A stretch of 64,000 bases of DNA from Acidimicrobiia bacterium. Lineage in GTDB: Bacteria; Actinomycetota; Acidimicrobiia; UBA2766. Positions 3,330 to 60,865 of this stretch are shown in pieces; position 1 is the stretch's first letter; the number at the start of each line of letters is the position of its first letter. Location of the stretch: NCBI GenBank assembly GCA_020850945.1, contig JADZDR010000008.1:29776-93775 (forward strand), written 5' to 3'. The notes beneath the pieces were generated by a model. That model was not told where the DNA came from. It saw only the letters and a program-made list of their open reading frames with translations, and did no database searches. A program made the position numbers and the translations under genes.

Positions 3330-4721
3330 TCAGGTGTGACTGGGGATCGGCGGGAAGTGCGCCCGCGCCTCCGACCTCGCTGTGCCGTGGAGGAGGCGGA
3401 TGGTGGCGTCGACCACGTCCGGGTCGTAGAGGCGTCCCCGACCCCGTGTGAGCTCCTCGATGGCGCTCTGCACCGGCCGGCCGGGCCGGTAGGGTCGATG
3501 CGCGGTCATCGCCTCGAGCACGTCGGCGACGGTGACGATGCGTGTCTCGAGGTCGATCTCGTCGCCGGCGAGGCCGTCGGGGTATCCGGAGCCGTCGAGG
3601 CGCTCGTGGTGACCGCGCACGACGTGGCGGACCGGCCAGTCGAACTCGACGCGGGCGACGATGTCCGCCCCGGCGATGGGGTGGTACTTGACCATTCCCC
3701 ACTCGCTCTCGGTGAGGCTGCCGGGCCGGCTCAGGATCTCGGCCGGCACGTAGAGCTTGCCGAGGTCGTGGATCAAGGCGGCGAGGTGTACACCCTGTGC
3801 GCGCTGCGGGTCCAGGCCGAGTTCCTCACAGATGGCCGTGGTGATCTCGGCGACGCGGCGCTGGTGACCGGCGGTGTGGGGATCGCGGGTCTCGACCGCT
3901 GTCACGAGGGAGTCGACGAGCTGGAAGAGGGACTGCTCGACTCTCTCCTCGGCCTCGCGGCGCTCCCTGATGTCGCGGATGACCGCCGTGAAGAGAGGGT
4001 CGGGGCCTGGTGTGAAACCGACCGTGGCCTCCACGGCAATCGTGTCGCCGCTTCGCAGCAGGCCTTCGTATTCGTGCGCGTGCCGGTACGGGCTCGGCCC
4101 CACCGGGTGGATCGCCTGTTCACGGACGATATCGTGGAGGATCGTCTCGTAGTCTTCTCTGTGAGCAGGGGGGACGAGGGACCTCACATCCTGTCCCATC
4201 ATGTCTCTCTCGCTGTAGCCGTAGAGCTCCTCCGCCGCCCTGTTGAACCCGACGATGGTGCCGTGCGTGTCGTAGGTGATGACGGCGTCGCCCACCGTGT
4301 CGAGGACTGCGCGGATGTTGAGCGTCGCCCGTTCCAGGGTCTCGTGGAGCTTGGCCGACGTGATCTCGCGGGCGACGTTGAACGTGCGGCCGAGCTCGGC
4401 CACGACGACGCCGTTCCACTGGAGCCACTTGTAGCTGCCGTCGTAGCAGCGGTACCGGTTCTCGAATGCGATGACGGTCTCACCCGTGGCCTTCGCCTCG
4501 GTCCACGTGGCCAGCGTGCGTTCGACGTCGTCGGGGTGGATGAAGTCGACGAAGGGGTGCTGCGCCCAGGTGTCCGGCGACCAGCCGAGAACCCGCTCGA
4601 ACGACGGGTTGACCCTGACGAGGTACCCCTCGAAGCTCGCCACGGCGAGCAGGTCCGGGGAGTCCTCCCACATGTGGTCGAAGAGCTCGAGGTCCTCGGC
4701 TGATGCGACTCTCTCTGTCAT
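3330..4721 (-). CDS. dual-PAS HD-GYP domain c-di-GMP phosphodiesterase
   Basis: 463 aa. Two PAS-like segments are followed by an HD-GYP domain (HDLGK, HHERLDGSGYP). Confidence 0.8.
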   Translation of the reverse strand: MTERVASAEDLELFDHMWEDSPDLLAVASFEGYLVRVNPSFERVLGWSPDTWAQHPFVDFIHPDDVERTLATWTEAKATGETVIAFENRYRCYDGSYKWLQWNGVVVAELGRTFNVAREITSAKLHETLERATLNIRAVLDTVGDAVITYDTHGTIVGFNRAAEELYGYSERDMMGQDVRSLVPPAHREDYETILHDIVREQAIHPVGPSPYRHAHEYEGLLRSGDTIAVEATVGFTPGPDPLFTAVIRDIRERREAEERVEQSLFQLVDSLVTAVETRDPHTAGHQRRVAEITTAICEELGLDPQRAQGVHLAALIHDLGKLYVPAEILSRPGSLTESEWGMVKYHPIAGADIVARVEFDWPVRHVVRGHHERLDGSGYPDGLAGDEIDLETRIVTVADVLEAMTAHRPYRPGRPVQSAIEELTRGRGRLYDPDVVDATIRLLHGTARSEARAHFPPIPSHT

Positions 4722-7403: not shown

Positions 7404-9916
7404 CGGATCACCACCGGGAACCGCAGTGACACGGTCAGGCCACCGCCCGGCGTGTCGTCGACTTCGATGCTGCCCCCGACGGACTCGACGAACCCCTTCG
7501 CGACCGCGAGTCCGAGCCCCACTCCGTTGTCGCTCCCTTCCCCTTCCAGGCGACGGAAGGGCTCGAAGATGGTCTCATGATCGGCGGGTGCTATCCCGGG
7601 CCCATGGTCCACCACGCGCACGAGAACTTCCTGTTGCACTGCACCCGCAGTCACGTGGACCGGGATGTCGGCCGGCGACCATTTCGCCGCGTTCGAGATC
7701 AGGTTCGCAACCGCCCTTTCGAGGAGGGTGGGGTCGACCTCGATCGCCGGTAGGTCCTCGGGAACGTCCACGACGACCCTCTGCTTGGGTATCTCGGGCA
7801 GGCTTTGGAGAGCTGCGTGGACGATCTCGTCGACTCCCACCTCGAACCTCGAGACCTGAAGGGCGCCGGTCTGGATGCGACTCATGTCGAGGAGGTTGCC
7901 CACGAGATGGTCGAGCCTCTCCGTCTGATCGCGGATGGCAGTCAGGAGCTCCCCGCGTTCTGCAGGTGGGATCTCCACACGTGGCTGCAGAAGAGTCGTG
8001 ACCGACGCGAGGATCGACGCCAGGGGAGTCCGCAGGTCGTGCGAGACGGCGTTGAGCACGGCGTTGCGCAGCTCGTCGGCCTCTTCGAGAGCATGCGCGC
8101 GGGCTGCATCCTCTTCCAGCTTTCGGCTCTTCTGGGCAAGGACCAGCTGATCGGCGAACGCAGTCAGCACCCGACGGTCCTCCGACGTGAGTCGGGGGCC
8201 GCGCAGTGCGAGAACGCTGTCTTCCTCCAGAGGGATACAGAGCCCGGCTTCCTCGGGACGCGTGGGTGGGTTCTCCCCTGCCGACACCTCGACCGTCGAG
8301 TCGTCGTCGGAGACGACGAGCACCGCCACCGCGTCCTGGCCGAAGGTCGTGCGCATGCGCTCCACGAGCTCGGGTAAGGCATCACGCGTGCTCAGGAGGG
8401 CCCCGGCAACCGAGCCGAGTGCCTCAGCGATCGCACTCGAGCGGTGCGCGTCGTGGCGACGTCGGGCGGCGAGCGATACGAGCGTGCTCACGACACCCGC
8501 CACGATGAGGAATGCGACCAGGGCGAAGAGGTTCTCCGGATCGGCAATCGTCAGGGTGTGGATGGGTGGCGTGAAGTACCAGTTCAGACAGAGGAATCCG
8601 GTGAACGCCGCCGCAATTGCCGGCCACGTACCCCCCACGGTCGCGACGAGCACCACAAAGAGCAGGTATAGAAGGATCTGGCTCGGTAGGCCGAGTTCGT
8701 CGCGTGTGCTCACGAGGACGAGCGTGAGCAGGGGCAGGCCCAGGGCGGCCAGCCCCCAGCCGGCGAGTGTGCGTCTGCGAGTCAGGGGAGCTGCGCGAGG
8801 ACGTCGCCAGGAGGCCTGGGACGCGCCCTGCTCCTCACCCGCCTCTTCGTAGGAGATCACGTGCACGTCTATGGGCCCGGATTCCCGGATGACCTTGTTG
8901 ATCACTGAGCCGGTCGTGATCTCCTGCCACCGGGACCGGCGAGTCGCACCCAACACGAGTTGAGTCGCGTTCTCGTCGTGGGCGAACTGCACGAGCGACC
9001 CGGCCACATCGCTTCCCACCACTTCGTGGAACTCCCCACCAATGGCTTGGAGAAGCGCCCGCTGCCTGTCGAACTGGGCTGAGGTATCCGACACGAGACC
9101 GTCCTGGCCGATGACACGCACTCCGAGGAGCTCGCCGTGACTGCGCTCCGCGATCCTGGCGGCACGCCGGATCAGCTGTTCCCCCCCGGGCGCTCCAGTG
9201 ACCGAGACCACAACGCGCTCACGTGTCTCCCACTGCGTCTCGATGTCGTGCTCTTCGCGGTACCTGCCCAAGTACTCGTCGACGCGGTCGGCGACCCAGA
9301 GGAGGGCGATCTCTCTGAGGGCGGCGAGGTTGCCCTTGCGGAAGTAGTTCGCGAGTGCTGCGTCGATGCGCTCCGCCGGGTAGATGTTCCCGTGCGCCAT
9401 GCGGCGCGTGAGGGCCTCGGGCGTCATGTCGACGAGCTCGATCTGGTCTGCCGACCGCACGACGGCATCCGGGATCGTCTCCTGCTGCCTGACCCCGGTG
9501 ATGTCCTCCAGGACGTCGTTGAGCGAATCGAGGTGTTGCACGTTGAGCGTCGACACGACATCGATCCCGGCATTGCGCAACTCCTGCACGTCCTGCCATC
9601 TCTTGGTGTGGCGTGACCCCGGGACGTTCGTGTGAGCTAGCTCGTCGACGAGCGCCACCTGCGGGCCGCGTGCGAGCACGGCGTCGATGTCCATCTCCTC
9701 GAAGGCCGTCCCCTTGTACTCGATCGAACGTCGCGGGATCACCTCGAGATCTTCGATCTGGGCGGCCGTGAGCTTGCGACCGTGCGTCTCCACGAATCCG
9801 ACGACAACGTCGGTACCGCGATCACGCCGACGCAGACCCTCGTTCAGCATCGCGAAGGTCTTGCCGACACCGGGCGCGGCCCCGAGGTAGATGCGAAGTT
9901 GCCCTCGTTTCGCCAT
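7400..9916 (-). CDS. kdpD: KdpD osmosensitive K+ channel sensor histidine kinase
   Basis: 838 aa. N-terminal KdpD domain with P-loop GAAPGVGKT, Usp-like domain, four TM helices, and HisKA (HDLRTPL) plus HATPase_c. Confidence 0.9.
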   Translation of the reverse strand: MAKRGQLRIYLGAAPGVGKTFAMLNEGLRRRDRGTDVVVGFVETHGRKLTAAQIEDLEVIPRRSIEYKGTAFEEMDIDAVLARGPQVALVDELAHTNVPGSRHTKRWQDVQELRNAGIDVVSTLNVQHLDSLNDVLEDITGVRQQETIPDAVVRSADQIELVDMTPEALTRRMAHGNIYPAERIDAALANYFRKGNLAALREIALLWVADRVDEYLGRYREEHDIETQWETRERVVVSVTGAPGGEQLIRRAARIAERSHGELLGVRVIGQDGLVSDTSAQFDRQRALLQAIGGEFHEVVGSDVAGSLVQFAHDENATQLVLGATRRSRWQEITTGSVINKVIRESGPIDVHVISYEEAGEEQGASQASWRRPRAAPLTRRRTLAGWGLAALGLPLLTLVLVSTRDELGLPSQILLYLLFVVLVATVGGTWPAIAAAFTGFLCLNWYFTPPIHTLTIADPENLFALVAFLIVAGVVSTLVSLAARRRHDAHRSSAIAEALGSVAGALLSTRDALPELVERMRTTFGQDAVAVLVVSDDDSTVEVSAGENPPTRPEEAGLCIPLEEDSVLALRGPRLTSEDRRVLTAFADQLVLAQKSRKLEEDAARAHALEEADELRNAVLNAVSHDLRTPLASILASVTTLLQPRVEIPPAERGELLTAIRDQTERLDHLVGNLLDMSRIQTGALQVSRFEVGVDEIVHAALQSLPEIPKQRVVVDVPEDLPAIEVDPTLLERAVANLISNAAKWSPADIPVHVTAGAVQQEVLVRVVDHGPGIAPADHETIFEPFRRLEGEGSDNGVGLGLAVAKGFVESVGGSIEVDDTPGGGLTVSLRFPVVIR

Positions 9917-9934
9917 GGTTCCGAGCCCCGCCGC

Positions 9935-10573
9935 TCAGCGCCGCGCGTCGAGCGCGACGTTGAGCTCGAGCACGTTCACCCTCCTCTCCCCCAGGAACCC
10001 GAGATCGGGGTCTTCGGTGTGGGCATCGACGAGGGTGAGGACATCGTCGACGTCCTCACCGCGGGTCGCGGCGACACGGGCCGCCTGGAGCTCGGCATTC
10101 GCAACCGAGATGTGCGGGTCCAAACCCGACCCGGACGCGGTGACGGCGTCGATCGGGATCTCGGTGTCAGGGTCGACATCGTTGATCTCACGGTACTCGC
10201 GCTCTCTCTGCTGGATGAGCCCCGCACACGGATCCGCCTCTGACCCGTCTTCGCAGAGCTCCCTCTGGTCTCCCGCCCTTCCCGCCCCCACGAGGACGGG
10301 GTTGCTCGGACCCAGATTCGAACCGCTGCTCGCCCGAGGATCGTATCCCTCCCCCGCCGCGGAGGGCCGAGGATGGAAGTACTCGTTGGACGTGAACGCC
10401 TGCCCGACGAGGGTGGATCCGACCTTCTCCCCGTCGACGTGGAGGAACGACCCGTTCGCCTTCCTGCCGAAGGCCACCTGGGCCACCCCGGTGACCACGA
10501 GTGGATAGACGATCCCGCAGATCACGGTGAAGGCGAGGAAGGTGACGATCGCGGGGGCGATTTGGCGTCTCAT
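9935..10573 (-). CDS. kdpC: K+-transporting ATPase subunit C
   Basis: KdpC-like sequence from internal Met MRRQIAPAIVTFLAF... onward. This start overlaps the kdpB stop. The upstream part of the 258-aa track ORF lies inside kdpB. Confidence 0.8.
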   Translation of the reverse strand: MRRQIAPAIVTFLAFTVICGIVYPLVVTGVAQVAFGRKANGSFLHVDGEKVGSTLVGQAFTSNEYFHPRPSAAGEGYDPRASSGSNLGPSNPVLVGAGRAGDQRELCEDGSEADPCAGLIQQREREYREINDVDPDTEIPIDAVTASGSGLDPHISVANAELQAARVAATRGEDVDDVLTLVDAHTEDPDLGFLGERRVNVLELNVALDARR

Positions 10574-10574
10574 G

Positions 10575-12734
10575 TCAGCTGATCCCCAGTGCGGTGATGA
10601 CCACGTCGATGAGCTTGATCCCGATGAAGGGGGCGACGATCCCCCCGATGCCGTACACGAACAGGTTGCGGCGCAATACCTGAGCCGCCGGCAGGGCCCT
10701 GAAACTGACACCGCGCAGTGCGAGGGGGATGAGAAGGATGATCACCAAAGCGTTGAAGACGACAGCTGAGAGGATCGCCGACACCGGTGACTCGAGCCGC
10801 ATCAGATTCAGAGCGTCGAGGGCCGGGAACACGCCGACGAACATGGCGGGGATGATTGCGAAGTACTTGGCTATGTCGTTCGCGATCGAGAACGTCGTGA
10901 GCGACCCCCGCGTCATCAGCATCTGCTTGCCGATCTCGACCACGTCGATCAGCTTCGTCGGGTCGCTGTCGAGGTCGACCATGTTGGCCGCCTCTTTCGC
11001 GGCCTGCGTGCCCGAGTTCATGGCAACACCGACATCTGCCTGTGCCAACGCGGGCGCGTCGTTGGTGCCGTCACCGGTCATTGCGACCAGCTTGCCGCCC
11101 TCCTGCTCTCGACGGATGAGCCGCATCTTGTCCTCAGGGGTGGCCTCGGCGAGGTAGTCGTCGACACCTGCTTCCTCTGCAATGGCCGAGGCGGTCACCG
11201 GGTTGTCGCCCGTGATCATCACGGTCCTGATCCCCATCGCGCGGAGCTCACCGAACCGCTCGACCATGCCCTCCTTGATGACGTCCTTCAGGTGGACGAC
11301 ACCGAGCACTTCCCGGCCTTCGGCCACCACGAGGGGCGTTCCACCGTCCCGCGCGATCGAGTCGATGGTCTGGTCCATCCCGGCCGGGATCTCACCGCCC
11401 TGCTCGTCGATCCACTGTCTCACGGAGTCCGCGGCCCCCTTGCGGATGCTGCTCGCATCGAAGTCGACCCCGCTCATGCGGGTCTGCGCGCTGAACGGGA
11501 TGAACTCCGATCCCTCGGGCACCTCCTGCGAGCGGGCACCGTACACCCCCTCCGCGAGCGCCACGATCGACTTCCCCTCCGGTGTCTCGTCGGCGAGGCT
11601 CGACATCCGTGCCACTTCGGCCAGCCGCTCAACGGAGATGCCGTACATCGGGATGAGCTCTACGGCCTGGCGGTTCCCGTAGGTGATCGTGCCCGTCTTG
11701 TCGAGCAGCAGCGTCGAGACGTCTCCGGCGGCCTCCACCGCCCGACCACTCATGGCGAGGACGTTGCGCTGGACGAGTCGGTCCATGCCCGCGATGCCGA
11801 TGGCGGAGAGGAGTCCTCCGATCGTGGTCGGGATGAGGCAGACGAGGAGAGCCAGGAGGATCGTGAGGGAGATCACCTTGTCGCCGGTCGCGCCCGAGTA
11901 GATCGCGAACGGTTGGAGGGTTGCAGTCGCGAGGAGGAAGATCAGGGTCAGACCCGACAGGAGGATCGTGAGGGCGAGCTCGTTCGGTGTCTTCTGGCGC
12001 TCTGCGCCCTCGACGAGGGCGATCATGCGGTCGAGGAACGTCTCACCCGGCCTTGCCGAGATCTGCACGACGATCGCGTCGGACAGGACCCGCGTGCCCC
12101 CCGTGACGGCAGACCGGTCCCCACCCGCTTCACGTATCACGGGTGCCGACTCACCTGTGATCGCGGACTCGTCGACGGACGCGATGCCCTCGATGACGTC
12201 CCCGTCTGAAGGGATGACCTCCCCGGCGGCGACGACGACGACATCACCCACCTCCAAAGCCGTGCTCGTGGTCTGCTCGAGTGTCCCGTCGGGAAGCCTG
12301 CGCGTGGCTGTCGTCTGCTTGCGTGTGGCGCGCAGGGTGTCCGCCTGCGCCTTGCCGCGGCCTTCGGCGACGGCCTCGGCGAAGTTCGCGAACAGCACCG
12401 TGAACCAGAGCCAGAACGAGACGAGACCGACAAAGAGCGGATCACCGCCCACGAGGAACACGTCCCGTACGAACAGGAGTGTCGTCACGACACTCACGAC
12501 CTCGACTATGAAGATCACGGGGTTCGCGATCAGGGTGGTCGGCTTCAGCTTGCGGAAGCTGTCCGTCACCGCCGGCCACAGGATCTCGGGATCGAGGATC
12601 GCCCGCCTCTGGCGTCCGGTTCGCTGCGCGTGCACGGCCGCGCGCTCGCCTATTGCCGTGCCCTCTCTGCTCGCCCCGCCGGGACCGGTCTCAGGGCCCT
12701 GATCCTGGGTGTTCTGTGCGGTCTGCTCGGTCAT
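10575..12734 (-). CDS. kdpB: K+-transporting P-type ATPase subunit B
   Basis: 719 aa with P-type ATPase motifs ([22 protein letters not shown]). Confidence 0.9.
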
Positions 12735-16713: not shown

Positions 16714-16782
16714 CCTGTCATCATGCCTTGTCGGGCGGTGAGCCCCAAGGCAGCACAGCCGTACGGGACAGAGGGAGAACGC

Positions 16783-30542: not shown

Positions 30543-31313
30543 ATGGACCTGACCCTGCGGATCTGGCGCCAGGCGGACGGCGATGCCGCCGGCGCCTTCG
30601 CCGTGTATGCGATTGCCGGGATCAACCCCGACATGTCCTTCCTCGAGATGCTCGACATCCTCAACGAGCAGATCCTCGCCGACGGCGGGGAACCCGTCGA
30701 GTTCGAGTCGGACTGCCGCGAGGGGATCTGCGGCACGTGTGGTGTCGTCGTCAACGGCATCCCGCACGGACCGGAGAAGGCGACGGCGACGTGCCAGCTC
30801 CACATGCGCAAGTTCCACGACGGCGACACCGTCACCGTCGAGCCGTGGCGGGCGACGGCCTTCCCGGTCCTGCGTGACCTCGTCGTCGACCGCTCTGCGC
30901 TCGACCGGATCGTCGAGGCGGGTGGCTTCATCACGGCACCGACCGGCGCGGCCCCCGACGCGAACGAGATCCCCGTCCCGAAGGAGGCGGCGGAGGCGTC
31001 GATGGACGCCGCGGCCTGCATCGGCTGCGGTGCCTGCGTCGCCGCCTGCCCGAACGGTGCCGCACAGCTCTTCACGGCCGCGAAGCTCGCCCACCTCGAT
31101 CTCCTCCCCCAGGGTCAGGCGGAGCGATTCCGCCGCACCGAGGCGATGGTCGACCGCATGGAGGACTACTTCGGGTCCTGCACCAACCACGGCGAGTGCG
31201 AGGAGGTCTGCCCGAAGGAGATCTCGATCGACTTCATCGCGATGATGAACCGCGACTACATCCGGGCGAAGTTCAAGAACCTGCGCCGGCTCGGCCAGCG
31301 TAAGGTCGGGTGA
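30543..31313 (+). CDS. sdhB: succinate dehydrogenase iron-sulfur subunit
   Basis: 256 aa with Cys clusters [10 protein letters not shown] and [12 protein letters not shown]...CxxHGxCxxxCP. Confidence 0.9.
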
Positions 31314-31325
31314 TCGCCCCCGGCT

Positions 31326-32675
31326 TCAGGTGACGTGCTCACCTTCCGCATCCGGACCGTCCGCGGCTGCGGGTGCCTGGGCCGGAGTGGCAACCGCTCC
31401 CTCGTCTACCGCCGGCGCAGTGTCGTCCTTCCCGTTGCCCGCGAGTGAGCTGAGCAGGTTCACGCCGGTCGCGGCCTCGATCTGATCGTTGAGGCGCACG
31501 ACAGTCCCGGGGAGCTGGCTCACGGCTGTCGAAACCCCGTTACCCGAACCCGAGTCGACGATCGAGATCCTGTCGATCAGCACGTTGTCGACGGTCGAGA
31601 CGAGCTTGTCCACGATGTCGGGCAGCATGCGCAGGACGTAGACGCGCTCGGCCATAGGCCCTGCCTCCTGGAACTCGTCCACGAGCTTTGCGAAGACCTC
31701 GATCGTGGCGTTGCCTGATTCGGTGATGGCGGCGGCCTTCCCCTGTGCCTCGAGTTGCGCGGCCTCGCGGGCGGCCCGGGCGGGTGCCACGACATCGGCC
31801 TCGAGCGTCCGCTCCTGGAGGGCGATGCGCTGCTGCTGCAGGTCCTGTTCCGCTGTCGCCTTGGCGATCTCACCGGCAACAGCCGCCTGCTTCTCCTTGG
31901 CGAGGGCAACCGCCTCGAGCTCGGCCCGGCGCACACGCAGCTCGTTCTGCTGCTCGACGATCTGGCGGTCGGCCTGTACGGTCGCGATCTCTGCCCGCTG
32001 GCGGGCGTCGGCCTCGGCCTCGAGCGCCTCGGCCGAACGTTCCGCCTCGGCGATCCGGGCTTCTTTCAGGACCTCGGCTGTGCGGCGCCGCCCCACCGAG
32101 TCGAGGTAGCCGACCTCGTCGGTCACGTTCTGGATCTTGAGGACATCGAGGCCGAGGCCGAGGGTTCGGATGTCGTCGTCGGCCTCGTCGGCGAGGGTCT
32201 GGGCGAAGCGCAGCCTGTCCTCGTTCACCTCCTCCGGCGTGAGCGTGGCGAGCACACCACGCAGGTTCGCCTCGAGCGTCTCCTTCGCGATCTGGCGGAT
32301 CGTCTCGAACGGCACGTCGAGGAACCGCTCGACCGAGTTCTCGAGCAGCCCCTCGACGTTGGCGACCTTCACGTTCGCGATGCCCTGCACGTTGAGGGGG
32401 ATCGCCCCCTTGGAGTAGGCGTTCGTGACCGTCACCTCGATCGGGATCGTGTTCAGACTCATCCAGGACACCCGCTCGATGAAGGGAACGCGCAGGGTGC
32501 GGCCTCCGTTCAGGATCCGGTAACCGACATGCCTGCCGTCGCTCATCGCCCGTCTCCGCCCCGATATGACAGCGATCAGGTTCGGGGGGCAGATGATGAT
32601 CAGGCGTTTCAGCAAGACCAGGACGAGGATGATCGCGAGGACGATCAGGGCTCCGGCGGCGAGTGCGATCTCCAT
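31326..32675 (-). CDS. flotillin / SPFH (band 7) family protein
   Basis: 449 aa with an N-terminal TM helix, an SPFH domain and a long Ala/Glu-rich coiled-coil (EAEADARQRAEIA...). Confidence 0.8.
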   Translation of the reverse strand: MEIALAAGALIVLAIILVLVLLKRLIIICPPNLIAVISGRRRAMSDGRHVGYRILNGGRTLRVPFIERVSWMSLNTIPIEVTVTNAYSKGAIPLNVQGIANVKVANVEGLLENSVERFLDVPFETIRQIAKETLEANLRGVLATLTPEEVNEDRLRFAQTLADEADDDIRTLGLGLDVLKIQNVTDEVGYLDSVGRRRTAEVLKEARIAEAERSAEALEAEADARQRAEIATVQADRQIVEQQNELRVRRAELEAVALAKEKQAAVAGEIAKATAEQDLQQQRIALQERTLEADVVAPARAAREAAQLEAQGKAAAITESGNATIEVFAKLVDEFQEAGPMAERVYVLRMLPDIVDKLVSTVDNVLIDRISIVDSGSGNGVSTAVSQLPGTVVRLNDQIEAATGVNLLSSLAGNGKDDTAPAVDEGAVATPAQAPAAADGPDAEGEHVT

Positions 32676-32692
32676 GCGGACTTCCTTTCAAC

Positions 32693-33286
32693 TCATGACA
32701 GATCCGGGTCGAGGACGTCGACGAAGGCCGTCCCGCCCTCGAACGACACGACGAGCACGTCCGCGCCGACGTCGAACACGCGGTCGCCGACTGGGTGGGG
32801 GCGGGCGGGGAGACGCATCGGTCGACCCGCGACGTCGACCATGACGCGTCCCGGCCTCGATCCCGACACCGGGACCACCACCTTGGCGCGCCGTCCGACG
32901 AGATCGGAGTCGAGCAACTCGCTGCTCGACTCGCCTCTTCGCATGAAGCGGTACGCGGCCGAGTTGAGGACGGCGACGGCAAGGCCGACGATGACGGCGG
33001 CGACGAGACCCACCCCCGGTGACGCGTCGAGGAGGCCGAACACGAGGCCGGCTGTGCCGAAGAAGGCGAGGAAGAACACGAGGGAGCTGAACCGGAGGAA
33101 CTGGAGGATGTGGGAGACGGGACCGCCCGCCTCCGCGTCGTGGCCCACGTCGTGGCCCACGTCGTGCCCGGCGTCGCCGTGCAGGTCCCCGCCCAGATGC
33201 GCATCGTGCCCGCCGTGCCCGGCAATGAGTTGGAATGCCACGAGGCCCCACCCGACAACCGCACATACGACGTACACGTACTGCAT
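32693..33286 (-). CDS. NfeD-like membrane protein (flotillin partner)
   Basis: Starts at internal Met MQYVYVVCAVVGWGLVAF.... Has a His/Asp-rich loop, TM helices and a C-terminal OB-fold-like segment (GRRAKVVVPVSGSRPGRVMVD). Directly upstream of the flotillin gene. Confidence 0.65.
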   Translation of the reverse strand: MQYVYVVCAVVGWGLVAFQLIAGHGGHDAHLGGDLHGDAGHDVGHDVGHDAEAGGPVSHILQFLRFSSLVFFLAFFGTAGLVFGLLDASPGVGLVAAVIVGLAVAVLNSAAYRFMRRGESSSELLDSDLVGRRAKVVVPVSGSRPGRVMVDVAGRPMRLPARPHPVGDRVFDVGADVLVVSFEGGTAFVDVLDPDLS

Positions 33287-33334
33287 GACCCAGGGAGTGT
33301 ATTCGCTGCCGGAAAGGCCGGGGGCCGAGCGCGG

Positions 33335-33392
33335 CACACAGTCTGGGTACCTGAGCGGCGCTATATCGCCGCTCAGGTACCCAGACTGTGTG
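33335..33392. repeat. 58-bp perfect palindrome (26-bp arms CACACAGTCTGGGTACCTGAGCGGCG, 6-nt centre CTATAT)
   Basis: Read directly: the second arm CGCCGCTCAGGTACCCAGACTGTGTG is the exact reverse complement of the first. It lies in the divergent intergenic region between nfeD (start 33286, minus) and the 33484 plus-strand gene. Confidence 0.9.
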
Positions 33393-33483
33393 GGTTTGGG
33401 GGGAGGGTTCTGCAACGGGTAGGTCCCGCGGTCACGCGGCGCGGACGAGGCCCGCGCGCCGTCGCGGTCTACACTGCCGACCG

Positions 33484-34302
33484 ATGTCCAGAATCGAGCT
33501 CTTCCAGCTCCAGCCCCAGAACGAGGTCGACCCGGACACGGGGGCGGAGGTCGTCGGGTTCGGGTACGGACTTCGCGACGCCACCACAGGGGCGCCTCTC
33601 CCCGCAGGTGATCCCTCTCTCGCCCCCCAGGGCATCCAGGTTTTCGACCTCATCGCCCTCGACCGGTACCCGTACGCGGCACAGGATCCGAGCTTCGACC
33701 CCGGCCGTGTTCTCGCCCTCGTCCCGGATCACAACCAAGGCGGAGCCGTGGGCGTGTGGGACGAAACCCGCCATGTGCAGGTCGGCTGGCTGCCCGGCAC
33801 GGCCGCAACCGTCGTGAACGAAGCCCTCGCTCAGGGTTGGTCGCAGCATGCAGTCGCCCTGTGGGCACAGCGCACACCTGACGACGTGCGTACCGGGCTT
33901 CGAATCGCGGTCTCGACCGATCTCCTGCCGATCGGGGGGCCTGTCGCGACACCTTCCGCGCCGGTTGCAGCGGTCGCCGCGGCGGTGCCCGAGCCCGCAC
34001 CGGCGGCGACACCGCCCGCACCCGACGCGTGGACCCCGACGACTGCCCCGCCCGAGGTGAAACGGGGCAAGGGTGCCGTCTGGGCCGTCCTCGCGGTGAT
34101 ACTCGCCGTCGTGATCGCCGCGGCCGTCTACTTCGCCTTCTTCCGGGGAGGCAATGAGCCCGAGCCGACGACCACGACCGAGGAACGGACGACGACCTCC
34201 ATCGCCACGACGGCTCCGCCGACCGTACCCACGACGGCTCCGCCGACGGTACCTCCGACCGAACCGCCGACCGTCCCCCCCACGGAACCACTACCCCCCT
34301 GA
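33484..34302 (+). CDS. hypothetical bitopic membrane protein with a Pro/Thr-rich repeat tail
   Basis: Starts MSRIELFQLQPQ.... Soluble N-terminal domain of about 150 aa, then a Pro/Ala linker, a TM helix (AVWAVLAVILAVVIAAAVYFAFF) and tandem TTAPPTVP repeats encoded by 24-bp repeats at about 34200-34290. Confidence 0.55.
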   Translation: MSRIELFQLQPQNEVDPDTGAEVVGFGYGLRDATTGAPLPAGDPSLAPQGIQVFDLIALDRYPYAAQDPSFDPGRVLALVPDHNQGGAVGVWDETRHVQVGWLPGTAATVVNEALAQGWSQHAVALWAQRTPDDVRTGLRIAVSTDLLPIGGPVATPSAPVAAVAAAVPEPAPAATPPAPDAWTPTTAPPEVKRGKGAVWAVLAVILAVVIAAAVYFAFFRGGNEPEPTTTTEERTTTSIATTAPPTVPTTAPPTVPPTEPPTVPPTEPLPP

Positions 34303-47289: not shown

Positions 47290-50200
47290 TCACTCCGGGT
47301 CCGCGGCCGGTTCCGCCGGCACACCGGCAACCTCGAGGTCCGCCAACAGGTCGGCGTCACCCGCCTCGCTCGTGTCGGCGGTGTCGACGGGGTCGGGACT
47401 GAAGACCTCGCGCACTCGCTCCGTGAGCTCGAGAGCGATGTCGGGATTCTCGGCAAGGAAGGCCTTGGCGTTCTCACGGCCCTGCCCGAGCTGTTCGCCC
47501 TCGTAGGTGAACCAGGCGCCGCTCTTCTGGACGAGGCCGGCGTCGACCGCCACGTCGAGAAGTGAACCCTCGCGGCTGATCCCCTTGCCGTACATGATGT
47601 CGAACTCCGCCTGCCTGAATGGCGCCGAGCAGTTTGCCACGACACAGCCCTCGGCCACGAAGGTGTGATGCTCGTCGACTTCGATATCGAAAACCTCACA
47701 TCTCTCGGAGGGAAGCACAGCTTCGATCCGTGCATAATGCAGGTCCTCGTCGAGCACGGCCCGGAGAAACTCGCTGTCGAGCGCATCGGCCAGCCGTTCG
47801 ATCCGATCTCTTCGCAGACGGCGCGCGCCGAGCACGAGCCTCAGGCTGTCACCCGCCCCCGCACCCGCTCCCAAGAGCCGGCCGACGAATGACGGCGTCA
47901 ACCCCCGCCCTCGCAGGTACGCCAAGACAGGTTCGGTCTGGGACGCGGGAAGGTAGTTCGTCTGGGAACCACGGTGCTTGCGCAACTCGGGATCCGCCAG
48001 GGACTCGACGAGCTTCGTCCCCCGCGGGCCCCACATCGGGAGGGCCTCGGCGAATCGTGTGACGTTGTCGATGCCACTCAAACGCACTTCCCAGCATGGC
48101 CGCCTCGCTTGTACCACCCGTCCCTTGATGAGGCTCGGCCGCTGACTCGTCGGGTCGTACACCCTCACCGATGTCCAAATGTCGAACCGCAGCAGGAGCC
48201 AATGAACCTGGTGGGCGAGCTGCTCTGATGTCGTCACGAATCCGCACCGGATCCCCCCGGTTTGCTCCCGACTCACGTACCCGTCCGTCTCCCAGAGGCC
48301 GAAGAGCAGGTTGCCGAGCACCTCCGCCGACACGTCGGAGGCGAAGAAGTCCGGTGGTATCCGCTTCTCGGGTGCCAGATGTCCCCAGATTCCCGCCCAA
48401 CGCACCAGCGCGAGGAGCTCGCTCTCCCTTCCAGAGCGGAAGGAGAAGCTCGTCTCGATCCCACGCCGTCTGGCCGAACAGCCGAGTGACTCGGCGATCT
48501 CGATGGCGTCCTGCTGCAACGACTCGGCCACGTTGATGAATGTCACCGGCGTCTTGCCACCCACATACCCGTCCCCGATCAGGTAGCCGAGGAGCCGGGC
48601 GTGGGCAGGGGGGACAGGCTCGGTATCACCGAACTCCCCCAAGCTGCGGGGCCGGGCAATTCGGTCACCTGCTCGCAAATCGCCGGCCGGACACCAACCC
48701 TTGTCCGTGAGGATCTTGTGGTCCGGTGTCACACGCAGGACCGTGCCATCGCGAAGTCGCAAACCGATGACGTCACGCACCCCTTGGGCGAAGCGGTTGA
48801 CGATGCGCCGCACATGCAGCTTCCCGGCCTTGTCGGCGGCAACCACGGCCTCACCCTGCTCACCTGTGACGATGTCTTCGATTCGGTGCGTCAGGCCTGT
48901 GGTCGGATCGAAGACGCGGGTACCGGCCGCGACGCACTTGTTCTTGGCGACCTTCACCCGCACCCGGTTGCCGACCGCCTCGGTGCCGACCTTGATCGAG
49001 TCGATGCGGCGCACGTCGAGACGCACCGACGAATAGAACTTGAGGGCTCGCCCACCCGATGTCGTCTCGGGTGAGTTGTGCACCATGACGCCGTCCACGA
49101 AGTAGTTGTGGGTCCCCTCGACCTCCAGATCGAAGCGATGCGTGTGCTTCCCGTTGGGCGGACCGACCCGGATGTCTGTTATCGGCATCGGCACCAGAAC
49201 CCGGCGCATCGGCGTGAAGATGGGCTGAACCGCGAACCGCCCTCGGAACTTCGGGAGCAGCTTGTAGTCCATCGACGGATGGACGAAGGGTGCGATCAGA
49301 GCGTGGAACGCCTCGGTCGCAGCCTTCGGGAACTGCAGGACCGCCTTGCGCGACTCGCCTCGGTAAACCAGCTTCGCCTGGATTCCCCAGGTGTCCGCGA
49401 GCAAGTCGACGAGGCGCCGGCGTGTGGCGGGGTCCATGGCTTCGATGCAGATCTCGCATCTGCCGCTCCCCCCCGCCGTTCGCGCCTGTTTCCCTTCGGT
49501 ACGGAGCTGGAAGGTGCCGTCATCCATGTACCAGAGGGCCAAGGCCAACGGCGTGAGCGCCTTCAGGTACTCGTCGCTGAACACCTTCTTGCCGCCGACG
49601 TACACGGACCTGCGAAGTTCCGCCAGCTCAGGAAGCGGACGCATGTCGAAGAAGATCGCTGCCTCTGCGTTGGTCGAGCGAGAAGTACCGATGTTCGCGA
49701 AGAGGGATGCCTTCCATTCCGCATATTCGGTCTGCTTCTTGCCATGACCCCACCTGAAGCGGGCTCCATGCCCACTGCGTGTGGGGGACAGAGCCCCGTC
49801 ACCCATCAGGGACCCGAGGATGACCTCCCGCTGGAAATCGGAGAGATGCTCTGGCACCTCTTGAAGCACCCGATCGCCAACCGAGAGCGCCTGTGCCTCC
49901 TTCCAGCCTCTCGGGGTGCGAATCCTGTGATTCGCCGTGCAGGAGAACTGGGCTCGACCGTTGCCGCCACCTCTCGCAACGCTGAAGCGGTAGAACTCGT
50001 CGGTCCGACCGTTGTCGAACCAGCCCACCACCCGCTTGGGTACCACGGCATCTTTGTCCGCGTCGTATGAGAGCACCTCGACCGGGAGTTTCTGGTTGAC
50101 GATCTTGCCGATCTTCTCCTGCGTTCCGTCCGCCAAAGTCACTCGCGTGCTGTAGTCGAAGCAGCCGAAGAGCACTCCCACCTTCTCACGGAGCTGGTTG

Positions 50201-50871
50201 ATGAAGATCATGATCGTGTTCGTCTTGGAGATCGTGCCCGAGAGCTTGCGCAGCGCCTGACTCATGAGTCGTGCCTGCAAACCGACGTGCGTGTCGCCCA
50301 TCTCGCCGTCGAGCTCGGCCTTGGGCACGAGGGCGGCGACCGAGTCGATCACGATCACGTCGAGGGCGCCCGATCGGATCAGCATGTCGGCGATCTCGAG
50401 CGCCTGCTCCCCCGTGTCGGGCTGGGAGATGTAGAGCTCGTCGATGTCGACGCCGAGGTTGCGGGAGTAGACGGGGTCGAGGGCGTGCTCGGCGTCGATG
50501 AACGCGCAGACTCCCCCGTTGCGCTGCGCCTCGGCGATCACGTGCAGGGCGAGCGACGTCTTCCCGCTGCTCTCGGGCCCGTACACCTCGACGATGCGTC
50601 CCCGCGGCAGGCCGCCGATGCCCAACGCGAGGTCGAGCGAGAGGGCACCGGTCGACACGACACCCTGTTCCTGCTTGAACGTGTCGTCCCCGAGCTTCAT
50701 GAGGGCACCCTTGCCGAACTGGCGCTCGATCTGGCTCACCGCCATGCCGATCGCCTTCTCGCGGGTGCCGTTCGAGTCCGGTCCGCCCCCTCGCCCCGAG
50801 ATCGGGGTCACCTTCGCCACGTTCCCCTTCGCGCCGCCCTTCGTGTTGCCCTTCGACGTGATCTGCGCCAT
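47290..50871 (-). CDS. recA: recombinase RecA precursor containing two inteins (mature RecA about 395 aa)
   Basis: 1193 codons. The exteins are 236 aa (with Walker A GPESSGKT), 46 aa and 113 aa, and are colinear with RecA. Two in-frame inserts of 363 and 435 aa carry intein and LAGLIDADG signatures. The N-terminal start (ATG 50871) is uncertain by about 20-30 codons. Confidence 0.85.
47632..48936 (-). mobile_element. RecA intein 2 (435 aa) with LAGLIDADG homing endonuclease domain, inserted KVAKNK|C...CVVAN|CSAPFRQ
   Basis: N-terminal Cys, block [18 protein letters not shown]-like [10 protein letters not shown] and [12 protein letters not shown]-terminal Asn followed by Cys. The penultimate residue is Ala rather than His. 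Confidence 0.8.
49075..50163 (-). mobile_element. RecA intein 1 (363 aa) with LAGLIDADG homing endonuclease domain, inserted KVGVLFG|C...VMVHN|SPETTSGG
   Basis: N-terminal Cys, block [18 protein letters not shown]-like [11 protein letters not shown] and [11 protein letters not shown]-terminal His-Asn followed by Ser. Confidence 0.8.
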
Positions 50872-50913
50872 GGTCCGTCCCTCTCTGCCTCGTCCTCTGC
50901 CTCCGGGTCTGTC

Positions 50914-50952
50914 CCGACTCGCCTTCCCGACTCGCCTTCTCGACTCGCCTCG
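50914..50952. repeat. 3 x 13-bp tandem direct repeat (CCGACTCGCCTTC x2, TCGACTCGCCTCG) in the recA leader
   Basis: Read directly. Lies 43-81 nt upstream of the annotated recA ATG. Confidence 0.8.
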
Positions 50953-51049
50953 GAGACCGTACCGGCGGGTTGTGACACAAAATCTCTCGGCACGGAATGT
51001 CACACCTGGAATTCCAGCCATGATATTCCGGACGTGCCGGGAGACTCTA

Positions 51050-51064
51050 TCGAACGCATGTTCG
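51050..51064. promoter_or_regulatory. LexA SOS box TCGAACGCATGTTCG upstream of recA
   Basis: Close match to the consensus TCGAAC-N4-GTTCGA, about 180 nt upstream of the recA start on the recA side of the intergenic region. Confidence 0.7.
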
Positions 51065-51103
51065 CCCGGCAAGGATCCCGGAGCGGAGCCGGGCCGAGTC
51101 CGG

Positions 51104-51682
51104 TCAGGTCTGGAGGGGGAACGTGTCGATCGAGACGTAGCGGGCACCGCTCGACTCGAGGCGTGACTCCATGAGGGTGACCTCCTCCACCACGCACGAC
51201 ACGTCGGGTGGGTCGATCGCGGCCACGACGGTCGACACGTCACCGGGATCACGCAAGCGGCCGATCGTGAGATGGGGCCGGAACTCCCGTGCCTCGGGCT
51301 CGAAGCCGAGCTTGGCCGTCTGGTCGCTCACCGAGGTCGAGAGCGCGGCGAGCCGGCTCTCGGGGTCGTCGACTCCGACCCACACGACCCGCGCGCGCCG
51401 CGGCGAGGGGAAGGCTCCGGAGCCCCCGAAGGTGATCCGGAAGGGGCGGATGCGGCCGGCCGCGAACGCGCACGCGAGCCTGATCCTGTCGACCAGGTCC
51501 GATTCGACATGGCCGAGGAACTGCAGGGTGAGATGCCATGCCTCCGGCTCGATCCACCGCCCCGTGGGCAGGTCCGGCAGCATCCCGAGGCCGGCGGCGA
51601 GCTCCTCGCGCACATGCCGCCCCGGGACCGCAGCGACGAAGAGGCGGATCCGGTCACCCACTGGGCGGCCCTGTCCCTGCAT
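51104..51682 (-). CDS. thpR: RNA 2',3'-cyclic phosphodiesterase (2H phosphoesterase, LigT/ThpR family)
   Basis: Two H-x-T/S-x motifs (HLTLQFLG and HLTIGRL). The start is uncertain; a GTG near 51661 is possible because the ATG overlaps the cinA 3' end. Confidence 0.75.
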
Positions 51683-55225: not shown

Positions 55226-56203
55226 TCAGAGCCAGCCCTTCCTGCGGAACAGGGCGTAGAGCGCGGCGGCGCAGACGACGATGAGGCCCACGCTCACGAG
55301 CCAGCCCGCCGTCCGGCCCTCACCCGGGTACGGGACGTTCATGCCGTAGTAGCCGGTGATCAGAGTCGGCACGGCGATGATCGCGGCCCAGCTCGTGACC
55401 TTCTTCATGATCAGGTTCTGCCTGTACTCGTGCAGCGTGAGGTTCGTCTCGACGATCGTCGTGACGAGGTCGCGGAGGGCGTCCGTCGACTCCACGACCC
55501 GCAGGATGTGGTCGTAAAGGTCCTGGTAGTAGGGGTAGAGCTCCTCGTGCACGGTCGTGTGCTCACGCCGCAGGAGGCCGCTCACGACCTCGCGCAGCGG
55601 TGCGGCGAGCCGGTGGAACCTCACGAGGGACTGCCGCACGTGGAACCAGCGGCGCTGCTGCTCGGGACTGAGGGGGGTCCCGGCGAAGATGAGGTCGCTG
55701 ACCTCGTCGTAGTAGTCGTCGAAGTCGGCGAGGACGTCGAAGTAGGCGTCGATCACGGTATCGAGGAGGCTGTACAGCAGGAACCCCACGCCGTGGCGGG
55801 TCATGTCGGTGGCGCCGTCCCAGCGGTTCGTGACCTCCCCGATCGGGAACTCCTCGTTCGCCCGCACGGTCACGAGCCACCGGTCGTTCACGAACGCGTC
55901 GATCTCGGTCGTGACGAGGCGCTCCGCCCCGCTGTCGAACCGGATCGCATGGCAGGCGAGGAAGGCGTGCGTGGGATAGAGGTCGAGCTTCGGTCTCTGG
56001 TGGGGATCGAGGGCGTTCTCCACGGCGAGCTCGTGCAGTCCGAGCTCGGCGGCGAGCTCGTGCAGCTCCGCCGCCGACGGCGCACACAGGTCGATCCAGA
56101 CGACGGTGTCGGACTCCCCGAGGCGCTCGGAGACCTCCCCCATCGGGAAGCCTTCTGCCTCGAGGACCCCGCCTCTGTATGCACGCGTGTGGGCTGTTCC
56201 CAT
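55226..56203 (-). CDS. corA: CorA family magnesium/cobalt transporter
   Basis: 325 aa with two C-terminal TM helices and the YGMNV (GMN) signature. Confidence 0.85.
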   Translation of the reverse strand: MGTAHTRAYRGGVLEAEGFPMGEVSERLGESDTVVWIDLCAPSAAELHELAAELGLHELAVENALDPHQRPKLDLYPTHAFLACHAIRFDSGAERLVTTEIDAFVNDRWLVTVRANEEFPIGEVTNRWDGATDMTRHGVGFLLYSLLDTVIDAYFDVLADFDDYYDEVSDLIFAGTPLSPEQQRRWFHVRQSLVRFHRLAAPLREVVSGLLRREHTTVHEELYPYYQDLYDHILRVVESTDALRDLVTTIVETNLTLHEYRQNLIMKKVTSWAAIIAVPTLITGYYGMNVPYPGEGRTAGWLVSVGLIVVCAAALYALFRRKGWL

Positions 56204-56260
56204 CCGGCCTCCTCGCCCAAGTTACCGCCGTGCGCCGGACTGGGCGGGTCGCTTGGGTGG

Positions 56261-56286
56261 GGTTTGTTGCGCATGCGCAACAAACC
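56261..56286. promoter_or_regulatory. 26-bp perfect palindrome GGTTTGTTGCGCATGCGCAACAAACC (extends imperfectly to about 38 bp)
   Basis: Read directly; it is self-complementary. Lies 58-83 nt upstream of corA (minus) and about 140 nt upstream of the 56425 plus-strand gene. Confidence 0.85.
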
Positions 56287-56424
56287 GCACCCAACTCCGT
56301 CACTTCTGCCCACATCGTGGCGCGAGCAGATCACGGCCAGTTGGGAACCGTGAGCTCCATCGGCGCGTCAGACCCATCGAAACACGGTCCGGATCTCGAT
56401 GCCGGCCACCAAGGGAGGAACACG

Positions 56425-60741: not shown

Positions 60742-60865
60742 CCACTGTCACGTGGGCGTACTGAACCACAACCACCGTGGTTGAATACGCCCACGTGGGT
60801 TGTCCACTGTCACGTGGGCGTACTGAGCCACAACCACCGTGGTTGAATACGCCCACGTGGGGGGC
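60742..60865. repeat. 2 x 62-bp tandem direct repeat; each unit contains a 12-bp inverted repeat CACGTGGGCGTA ... TACGCCCACGTG around an inner near-palindrome CAACCACCGTGGTTG
   Basis: Read directly. The units are CCACTGTCACGTGGGCGTACTGA(A/G)CCACAACCACCGTGGTTGAATACGCCCACGTGGG..., with 1 mismatch between copies. The repeat starts 9 nt after the rnj stop and ends about 140 nt upstream of ftsK. Confidence 0.85.

Follow-up and report, generated by a model that had tools for sequence, protein, structure and literature searches.

The 58-bp palindrome at positions 33335-33392 of the window (the whole stretch of DNA analyzed here, 64,000 nucleotides) is very probably one copy of a dispersed, intergenic, hairpin-only REP/MITE-like repeat family in the genome of an uncultured member of the Acidimicrobiia. 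The sequence is multi-copy, its copies lie in unrelated contexts, it is absent from the corresponding sites of relatives, and at one of those sites the filled and the empty version differ by 58 nt. Because the copies are near-identical, occupy unrelated intergenic sites and are missing from the sites of relatives, they point to arrival by insertion rather than to inherited regulatory sequence. From this presence and absence we infer that the repeat is mobile; the relatives compared are distant, and an empty site could also mean loss. The initial annotation had offered three readings of the palindrome, namely a shared operator for a dimeric regulator, a cruciform-forming element, and a small mobile or REP-type element. 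It is the third that agrees with the multi-copy status, the unrelated contexts and the empty orthologous sites.

The palindrome and its surroundings

The features of the locus are as follows.

33335-33392, no strand: 58-bp palindrome with 26-nt perfect arms and a CTATAT center; the window's copy of the dispersed repeat
33341-33386, no strand: 46-bp core common to all copies, from comparison with five other copies
33335-33340, no strand: copy-specific stem extension CACACA, pairing with TGTGTG at 33387-33392
32693-33286, minus strand: gene for an NfeD-like membrane protein (IT198_01605, MCC7075798.1); neighbor of the repeat, not part of it
31326-32675, minus strand: flotillin/SPFH (Band_7) gene, Pfam match E=1e-20; neighbor
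33484-34302, plus strand: gene whose 272-aa product combines a transmembrane segment with a Pro/Thr-rich tail and is 60% identical to its orthologue in the relative L017; neighbor
33296-33301, minus strand: TACACT, -10-like hexamer located 9 nt upstream of the nfeD-like ATG; putative promoter element
33470-33475, plus strand: TACACT, -10-like hexamer located 8 nt upstream of the divergent gene's ATG; putative promoter element

The left arm (33335-33360), CACACAGTCTGGGTACCTGAGCGGCG, matches the reverse complement of 33367-33392 at every base; between the two is a 6-nt spacer, CTATAT. The palindrome itself is real, with two exact 26-nt arms around this center. Its earlier description as a perfect 58-bp palindrome holds for the arms but not strictly for the whole 58-mer, in which 28 of 29 positions pair when the center is included. 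It is the longest inverted repeat of the 64-kb window. Neither the full arm, searched with up to 3 mismatches, nor the 20-nt inner arm, searched with up to 4, had a second match in the 64-kb window, and arm matches occurred in 0 of 100 dinucleotide-preserving shuffles. The predicted hairpin energy of this copy is -55.9 kcal/mol as RNA and -35.4 kcal/mol as DNA (z of about -14 relative to shuffles), and cruciform extrusion at the window palindrome would be physically possible. By inspection, the sole internal dyad of each arm is the 6-bp GGTACC; a 6-bp dyad of this type is expected by chance in about one in three 26-mers. At the gathering threshold no Rfam family matched, and permissive E-values gave generic hairpin matches to miRNA models that were far below threshold. 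A scan for intrinsic terminators found none.

The distances to the flanking genes, given in the initial annotation as about 50 and 90 nt, are right: the nfeD-like ATG on the minus strand (33286) is 48 nt from the palindrome, and the plus-strand ATG (33484) is 91 nt from it. The gene labels stand fairly well. Flotillin is secured by its Band_7/SPFH match, and the transmembrane segment and Pro/Thr-rich tail attributed to the divergent gene are seen in its product. The name nfeD comes only via weak homologues with NfeD names or domains, and the product has no Pfam domain match of its own. Downstream of the 272-aa protein gene lie a WS/DGAT acyltransferase gene and then msrA. The rest of the window is ordinary chromosome at 68% GC, including kdp, sdh, lexA, recA, ftsK, rnj and dapA, and a Pfam scan of 47 window ORFs revealed no regulator gene adjoining the palindrome.

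Leaderless transcription is known from actinobacteria, and we used it to place the starts of both flanking genes. TACACT is also present before the nfeD-like orthologue in the relative L001, and it is kept before the orthologue of the plus-strand gene in L017 and L018. Approximately 30 nt around the plus-strand hexamer are conserved in L017, with an alignment score of 35 against a shuffle mean of 18.3; none of 500 shuffles reached this score. Both flanking genes appear to start transcription at or near their ATG. With starts so placed, the palindrome would lie at about -49 to -106 relative to the nfeD-like gene and at about -92 to -149 relative to the divergent gene, that is, upstream of both core promoters, and hence would probably be untranscribed. 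A TANNNT hexamer stands 5-10 nt before the ATG or GTG of 14 window ORFs (for example at 16723, 24930, 35959, 37629, 39902, 46539 and 63434), a spacing that suggests widespread leaderless transcription in the organism.

The window also contains other palindromes. Positions 60749-60859, between the RNase J stop (60874, minus strand) and ftsK, hold two tandem copies (62-bp period) of another palindrome, about 49 bp long (CACGTGGGCGTACTGAaCCAC ... GTGGTTGAATACGCCCACGTG); a second palindromic repeat family is one possibility, a processing or termination structure another. A 42-bp near-perfect palindrome at 56253-56294 (TTGGGTGGGGTTTGTTGCGCA followed by TGCGCAACAAACCGCACCCAA) lies directly upstream of a corA-like gene (55226-56203, minus strand) and occurs once in the window. 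The recA frame (47290-51252, minus strand) carries two intein/homing-endonuclease insertions, with LAGLIDADG_2 at residues 475-649 and Intein_splicing plus LAGLIDADG_3 at residues 786-1207, and a 38-bp imperfect palindrome lies upstream of its RecA domain at 50993-51030.

Copies of the repeat and empty sites in relatives

A scan of metagenome contigs, seeded with the exact 20-nt inner arm, matched five contigs. Four of these hold five further copies: two complete copies on L014 and one each on L013, L016 and, in part, L012. The match on the fifth, L015, was rejected as a chance match within an asparagine-synthetase-like reading frame, with no second arm. The copies found in the metagenome scan are listed below.

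L014, 240-285: complete palindrome (L014a)
L014, 1070-1115: complete palindrome (L014b)
L016, 1006-1051: complete palindrome
L013, beginning at contig base 2: complete palindrome
L012: palindrome truncated by the contig end

The contigs were placed by their flanking proteins.

L014: exact protein matches to IT198_11515, IT198_11520 and MCC7077747; MAG contig of 58.9 kb
L013: exact protein match to IT198_04680; MAG contig of 18.6 kb
L012: exact protein match to MCC7076910; MAG contig of 231.6 kb
L016: protein in the same 90% cluster as IT198_03650; MAG contig of 172 kb

The nfeD-like gene of the window, IT198_01605, belongs to a MAG contig of 101 kb. Judged by these protein matches on metagenome contigs, at least six copies are carried on five contigs of one population genome (IT198_). 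The number is a lower bound set by the exact 20-mer seed, with six copies documented, one of them in the 64-kb window. The same palindrome has been assembled independently in two other projects, WBZR01 and JAANMX01. The breaks of L012 and L013 at or within a copy are typical behavior of repeats.

The unit of the family is GTCTGGGTACCTGAGCGGCG-ATATAT-CGCCGCTCAGGTACCCAGAC, 46 bp with 20-nt arms. The single difference of the window copy from it is at 33361, with C in place of the A of the other copies, and the L013 copy differs in one outermost base; outside the 20-mer seed, one change is seen across all four complete metagenome copies. This near-invariance outside the seed is far more conservation than protein binding would require. 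Predicted RNA hairpin energies of the copies range from -45 to -56 kcal/mol, at about -45 kcal/mol for the 46-nt core and deeper where the flanks pair.

Next to the core, all six flanking positions pair in the window copy (CACACA/TGTGTG), L014b has GGG/CCC, L014a has three Watson-Crick and two G-T pairs, and L016 has none paired. L012 reads CACGCA where the window has CACACA; the flanks of the other copies are different, often partly complementary. Mutually complementary core flanks are thus present in three of four complete copies, with different letters in each (CACACA/TGTGTG, GGG/CCC and GTG/CAC). They could reflect either a stem longer than the conserved core or insertion that favors the centers of pre-existing dyads. 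L014a and L014b are further alike in a tail of about 25 nt, yCCACnnCTCCCACGCGkGTCA, located on the same side of both.

All six copies are intergenic. Each of the five outside the window lies 18-76 nt past a stop codon, and one of them is between convergent genes. L014a is 18 nt past the stop of an alpha/beta-hydrolase-like gene and 61 nt before the next gene, while L014b is 29 nt past the stop of a nucleotidyltransferase-like gene and 19 nt from the stop of the convergent Nfu gene. One further copy is 25 nt past the stop of an SDR oxidoreductase gene and another is 27 nt past a hypothetical secreted-protein gene; the L016 copy is 75 nt past a hypothetical-protein gene and some 80 nt before a gene for what is, by eye, a tryptophanyl-tRNA synthetase. 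In all, one context is divergent, two are tandem, one is convergent and two are unknown. The window copy alone lies in a divergent promoter region, and it also has the longest perfect stem among the copies. No U-tract or T-run follows any copy. None of the five other copies is linked to nfeD.

The two L014 copies (spanning 240-1115) are 830 bp apart and bracket a two-gene cassette that resembles a toxin-antitoxin pair. The cassette encodes an 80-aa protein and a 146-aa nucleotidyltransferase-like protein (IT198_11515/11520) and is present without the repeats in the relative L034. L034, whose Nfu is 76% identical, has the same gene order as L014 (hydrolase, small protein, nucleotidyltransferase, Nfu). 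Both palindrome sites of L014 are empty in L034, and at the L014a site the alignment gap between filled (L014) and empty (L034) is 58 nt.

Near relatives are few; the nearest NfeD-like homologues, at 58% identity, are found in L001-L004. No palindrome lies upstream of the nfeD-like orthologue in L001. A possible remnant of the arm at this position, prompted by the shared words GCCGCTC, CTGTGT and TGAGCGG, was dismissed as chance (alignment score 14 against a shuffle mean of 14.6). L001 has a transposase-like ORF fragment (3-341) located 75 nt upstream of its nfeD-like gene, and in L005, a distant relative, the NfeD-like gene overlaps at its start with a gene for a PadR-family regulator (9621-10684).

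Relatives with 83% identical SdhB (L017-L026) are without the nfeD-flotillin pair; an EamA gene sits between sdhB and the orthologue of the plus-strand gene. The order in these relatives is sdhB, EamA, the orthologue of the divergent gene, WS/DGAT and MsrA, with sdhCAB and the downstream genes syntenic with the window. The nfeD-flotillin pair is lineage-specific at this locus (window 31314-33392 versus L017 10772-11802, where an EamA transporter gene stands instead). Upstream of the orthologue of the divergent gene, L017 and L018 have no palindrome. Altogether, four of four orthologous sites examined are without it, in relatives that are distant (58-83% amino-acid identity).

Wider searches gave no further members. 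Loci of relatives totalling about 190 kb, largely redundant, contained no copy at up to 4 mismatches per arm. An 18-mer search of a collection of species-representative genomes returned four single-arm matches in unrelated taxa and no palindrome of the family; by estimate, approximately 17 such matches are expected by chance (596 Gb x 2 strands / 4^18). In viral contigs a 16-mer gave two chance matches and the 22-mer center none, and BLAST against plasmids and phages found no match. One of the 18-mer matches, at 3660-3760 of the Dermatophilaceae MAG L006, falls in an inverted repeat of that genome's own that contains CCTGAGCGG; nothing else is in common, and the match was set down to chance. 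This 14-bp inverted repeat (CCTGAGCGGTACGT ... ACGTACCGCTCAGG) spans the start codon of a small gene.

Comparison with known repeat classes

REPs are elements of 20-40 bp with stems mostly of 6-9 bp and up to 12-13 bp (PMC3733652), and REPs and REPINs, tagged with GTAG or CGTC, are mobilized by RAYT transposases (PMC3733652, PMC3337134, PMC5581495). Like REPs, the repeat is short, non-coding, extragenic, multi-copy and hairpin-forming, lies mostly just downstream of genes, and varies in presence between related genomes. It differs in its stems, which are perfect and 20-26 bp long whereas REP stems are shorter and imperfect; the element is a 46-bp core with stems of 20-21 bp, extended in the window copy to 58 bp with a 26-bp stem. 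No copy contains GTAG, and CGTC occurs near the core only in L016, 1 nt away. Six copies are documented, as a lower bound, compared with tens to hundreds for REPs. The window contains several distinct palindromes, and multi-copy status was shown for the one at 33335-33392 only. A REPIN doublet, as defined in PMC3337134, was considered and set aside: the arms are not REP-like imperfect palindromes, they lie 4-6 nt apart, and GGTACC is the only dyad in each. Among the 47 window ORFs scanned against Pfam, a subset of the window's ORFs, none has a transposase or RAYT domain, and no parent IS with matching ends was found.

Correia/NEMIS, RUP, ERIC and Nezha are examples of bacterial MITEs (PMC3733652). 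The repeat arms of 20-26 nt are within the range of MITE TIRs (15-30 bp), and the repeat is likewise non-coding and intergenic, shows insertion-like presence and absence, and would form a robust hairpin if transcribed. MITEs, however, are 70-300 bp with internal sequence, whereas the repeat is 46-58 bp with arms only 4-6 nt apart. Moreover, the four complete copies show no direct target-site duplication, and their flanks instead tend to be inverted complements. There is also a resemblance to the TIR families tied to TIRYT tyrosine transposases, in which membership is given by a flanking TIRYT gene (PMC3733652). These are moderately abundant, longer inverted repeats unrelated to GTAG REPs, some of them self-complementary, in species without classical REPs; for such a gene the comparison covers the 64-kb window, where no transposase domain appeared among the scanned ORFs.

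Three further classes were considered. Integron attC and Xer/dif sites do not fit by eye, as there is no GTTRRRY/RYYYAAC core, no extrahelical bases are present, and the arms next to the spacer are GC-rich, unlike dif. A canonical intrinsic terminator was rejected given the empty scan, the lack of a T-run after the copies and the position of the window copy between divergent genes. Hairpin-only, I-shaped intrinsic terminators that have no U-tract are reported in mycobacteria, and the copies resemble these in being GC-rich hairpins without a U-tail shortly past stop codons in a high-GC Gram-positive lineage. Such terminators, though, do not share an identical sequence from one unrelated gene to the next, and the window copy follows no gene. 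Since the repeat acts like a REP, REPIN or MITE and yet falls outside the definition of each, we regard it as a variant within the small palindromic repeats.

Alternative explanations and probable behavior of the repeat

Among the alternatives, the one that fares best is a family of selected terminators or mRNA-stabilizing hairpins, in which the window copy is a stray. It addresses function and not origin, and so overlaps with the insertion of a dispersed repeat; taken as the explanation of the family it is possible but on the unlikely side. All five copies outside the window lie shortly past stop codons, one between convergent genes, and their folds are very stable. REPs, too, are found mostly downstream of coding regions, and roles in termination and mRNA stabilization have been hypothesized for them (PMC3733652). 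Against this, neither the terminator scan nor the sequence after any copy provides the expected signals, the mix of contexts matches the expectation for random intergenic insertion, and no gene has the window copy downstream of it. Selection for a hairpin also leaves identical sequence at unrelated loci unexplained.

We consider it improbable that the palindrome is a rearrangement scar at the junction where nfeD-flotillin replaced EamA, for instance one carried in by the incoming DNA or formed at the breakpoint through template switching. The palindrome does lie at the boundary between the novel nfeD-flotillin segment and the conserved one, and the relatives with 83% identical SdhB carry EamA instead. 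The five other copies show that the sequence pre-exists as a family and was not created at the locus; furthermore, the other boundary (31313-31326) has no second copy, and L001 has nfeD-flotillin without the palindrome.

A genome-wide site for a chromosome-organizing or global DNA-binding protein, like the parS, matS and Noc/SlmA sites but longer, would agree with a sequence that is multi-copy, symmetric, almost invariant and present on at least five contigs. Known sites of this kind are 13-16 bp and tolerate variation, while here 46 bp are invariant. Copies are missing from the orthologous sites of relatives, the family was not detected outside the species, and the two L014 copies around a small cassette fit mobile DNA better. 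Together these observations leave such a site with only a slight chance of being correct.

A dedicated shared operator, at which a dimeric or dimer-of-dimers regulator controls the nfeD-flotillin operon, the divergent gene or both, is very unlikely. The divergent intergenic location and the dyad symmetry would suit an operator, and the PadR gene directly before the NfeD-like gene of L005 indicates that such operons can be regulated. However, the arm search in the metagenome contigs uncovered a multi-copy family without a link to nfeD, with the same 46 bp at five unrelated loci of the same genome. One of these, L014b, lies between convergent genes, without a promoter, and thus cannot be an operator. 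Nor is the palindrome conserved upstream of nfeD in relatives: it is absent at the orthologous sites of L001 and L017/L018 although the TACACT elements are kept. It also falls outside both putative core promoters, no regulator gene is adjacent, and a perfect 26-bp half-site far exceeds what regulators need. The first reading of the initial annotation is accordingly not upheld.

An assembly artefact in the MAG contig, such as a chimeric join or a spurious hairpin, can be practically dismissed: two metagenome contigs (L012 and L013) do break at or within the repeat, but in relatives the sequences flanking the palindrome correspond to a single uninterrupted syntenic region (sdh to the left; the 272-aa protein gene, WS/DGAT and MsrA to the right), and the palindrome was assembled independently in WBZR01 and JAANMX01.

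If the palindrome is a dispersed hairpin-only repeat, as we favor, it would have spread in trans, by a transposase or an HUH-type nuclease. Transcription of the copies past stop codons would yield very stable RNA hairpins (the 46-nt core at about -45 kcal/mol), and by analogy with REPs such hairpins could block 3' exonucleases and protect 3' ends, or stop transcription. The window copy would have landed between two leaderless-type promoters without disrupting either. Most likely it has little or no dedicated regulatory role at this locus and is neutral; a locally co-opted role is possible, for example if divergent transcription drives cruciform extrusion. More speculatively, the repeat might represent an undescribed class of minimal hairpin-only mobile element in the Acidimicrobiia, with two abutted 20-nt arms and an AT-only center, that spreads without target duplication, perhaps as single-stranded DNA via an unrecognized HUH-type or other nuclease. 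Such an element may prefer the centers of short dyads or hairpins downstream of genes, and could also act as a cruciform sink for negative supercoils at divergent promoters. We put this forward tentatively, as an unlikely extension.

For the nfeD-flotillin operon, these results remove a tempting inference, as there is no evidence for a dedicated palindromic operator. In practical terms, short-read assemblies of this organism break at the repeat, and two contigs end in copies. Catalogues of small palindromic repeats cover mostly Proteobacteria, with a few other phyla; in a 2013 survey, GTAG repeats were recorded from Proteobacteria, Cyanobacteria, Chloroflexi and the PVC superphylum, with Actinobacteria unnamed in its text (PMC3733652). 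A family in an uncultured Acidimicrobiia lineage slightly extends this catalogue; its perfect stems are unusually long, and it lacks both a GTAG/CGTC tag and target duplication. The family would offer a tractable case for how hairpin-only repeats move.
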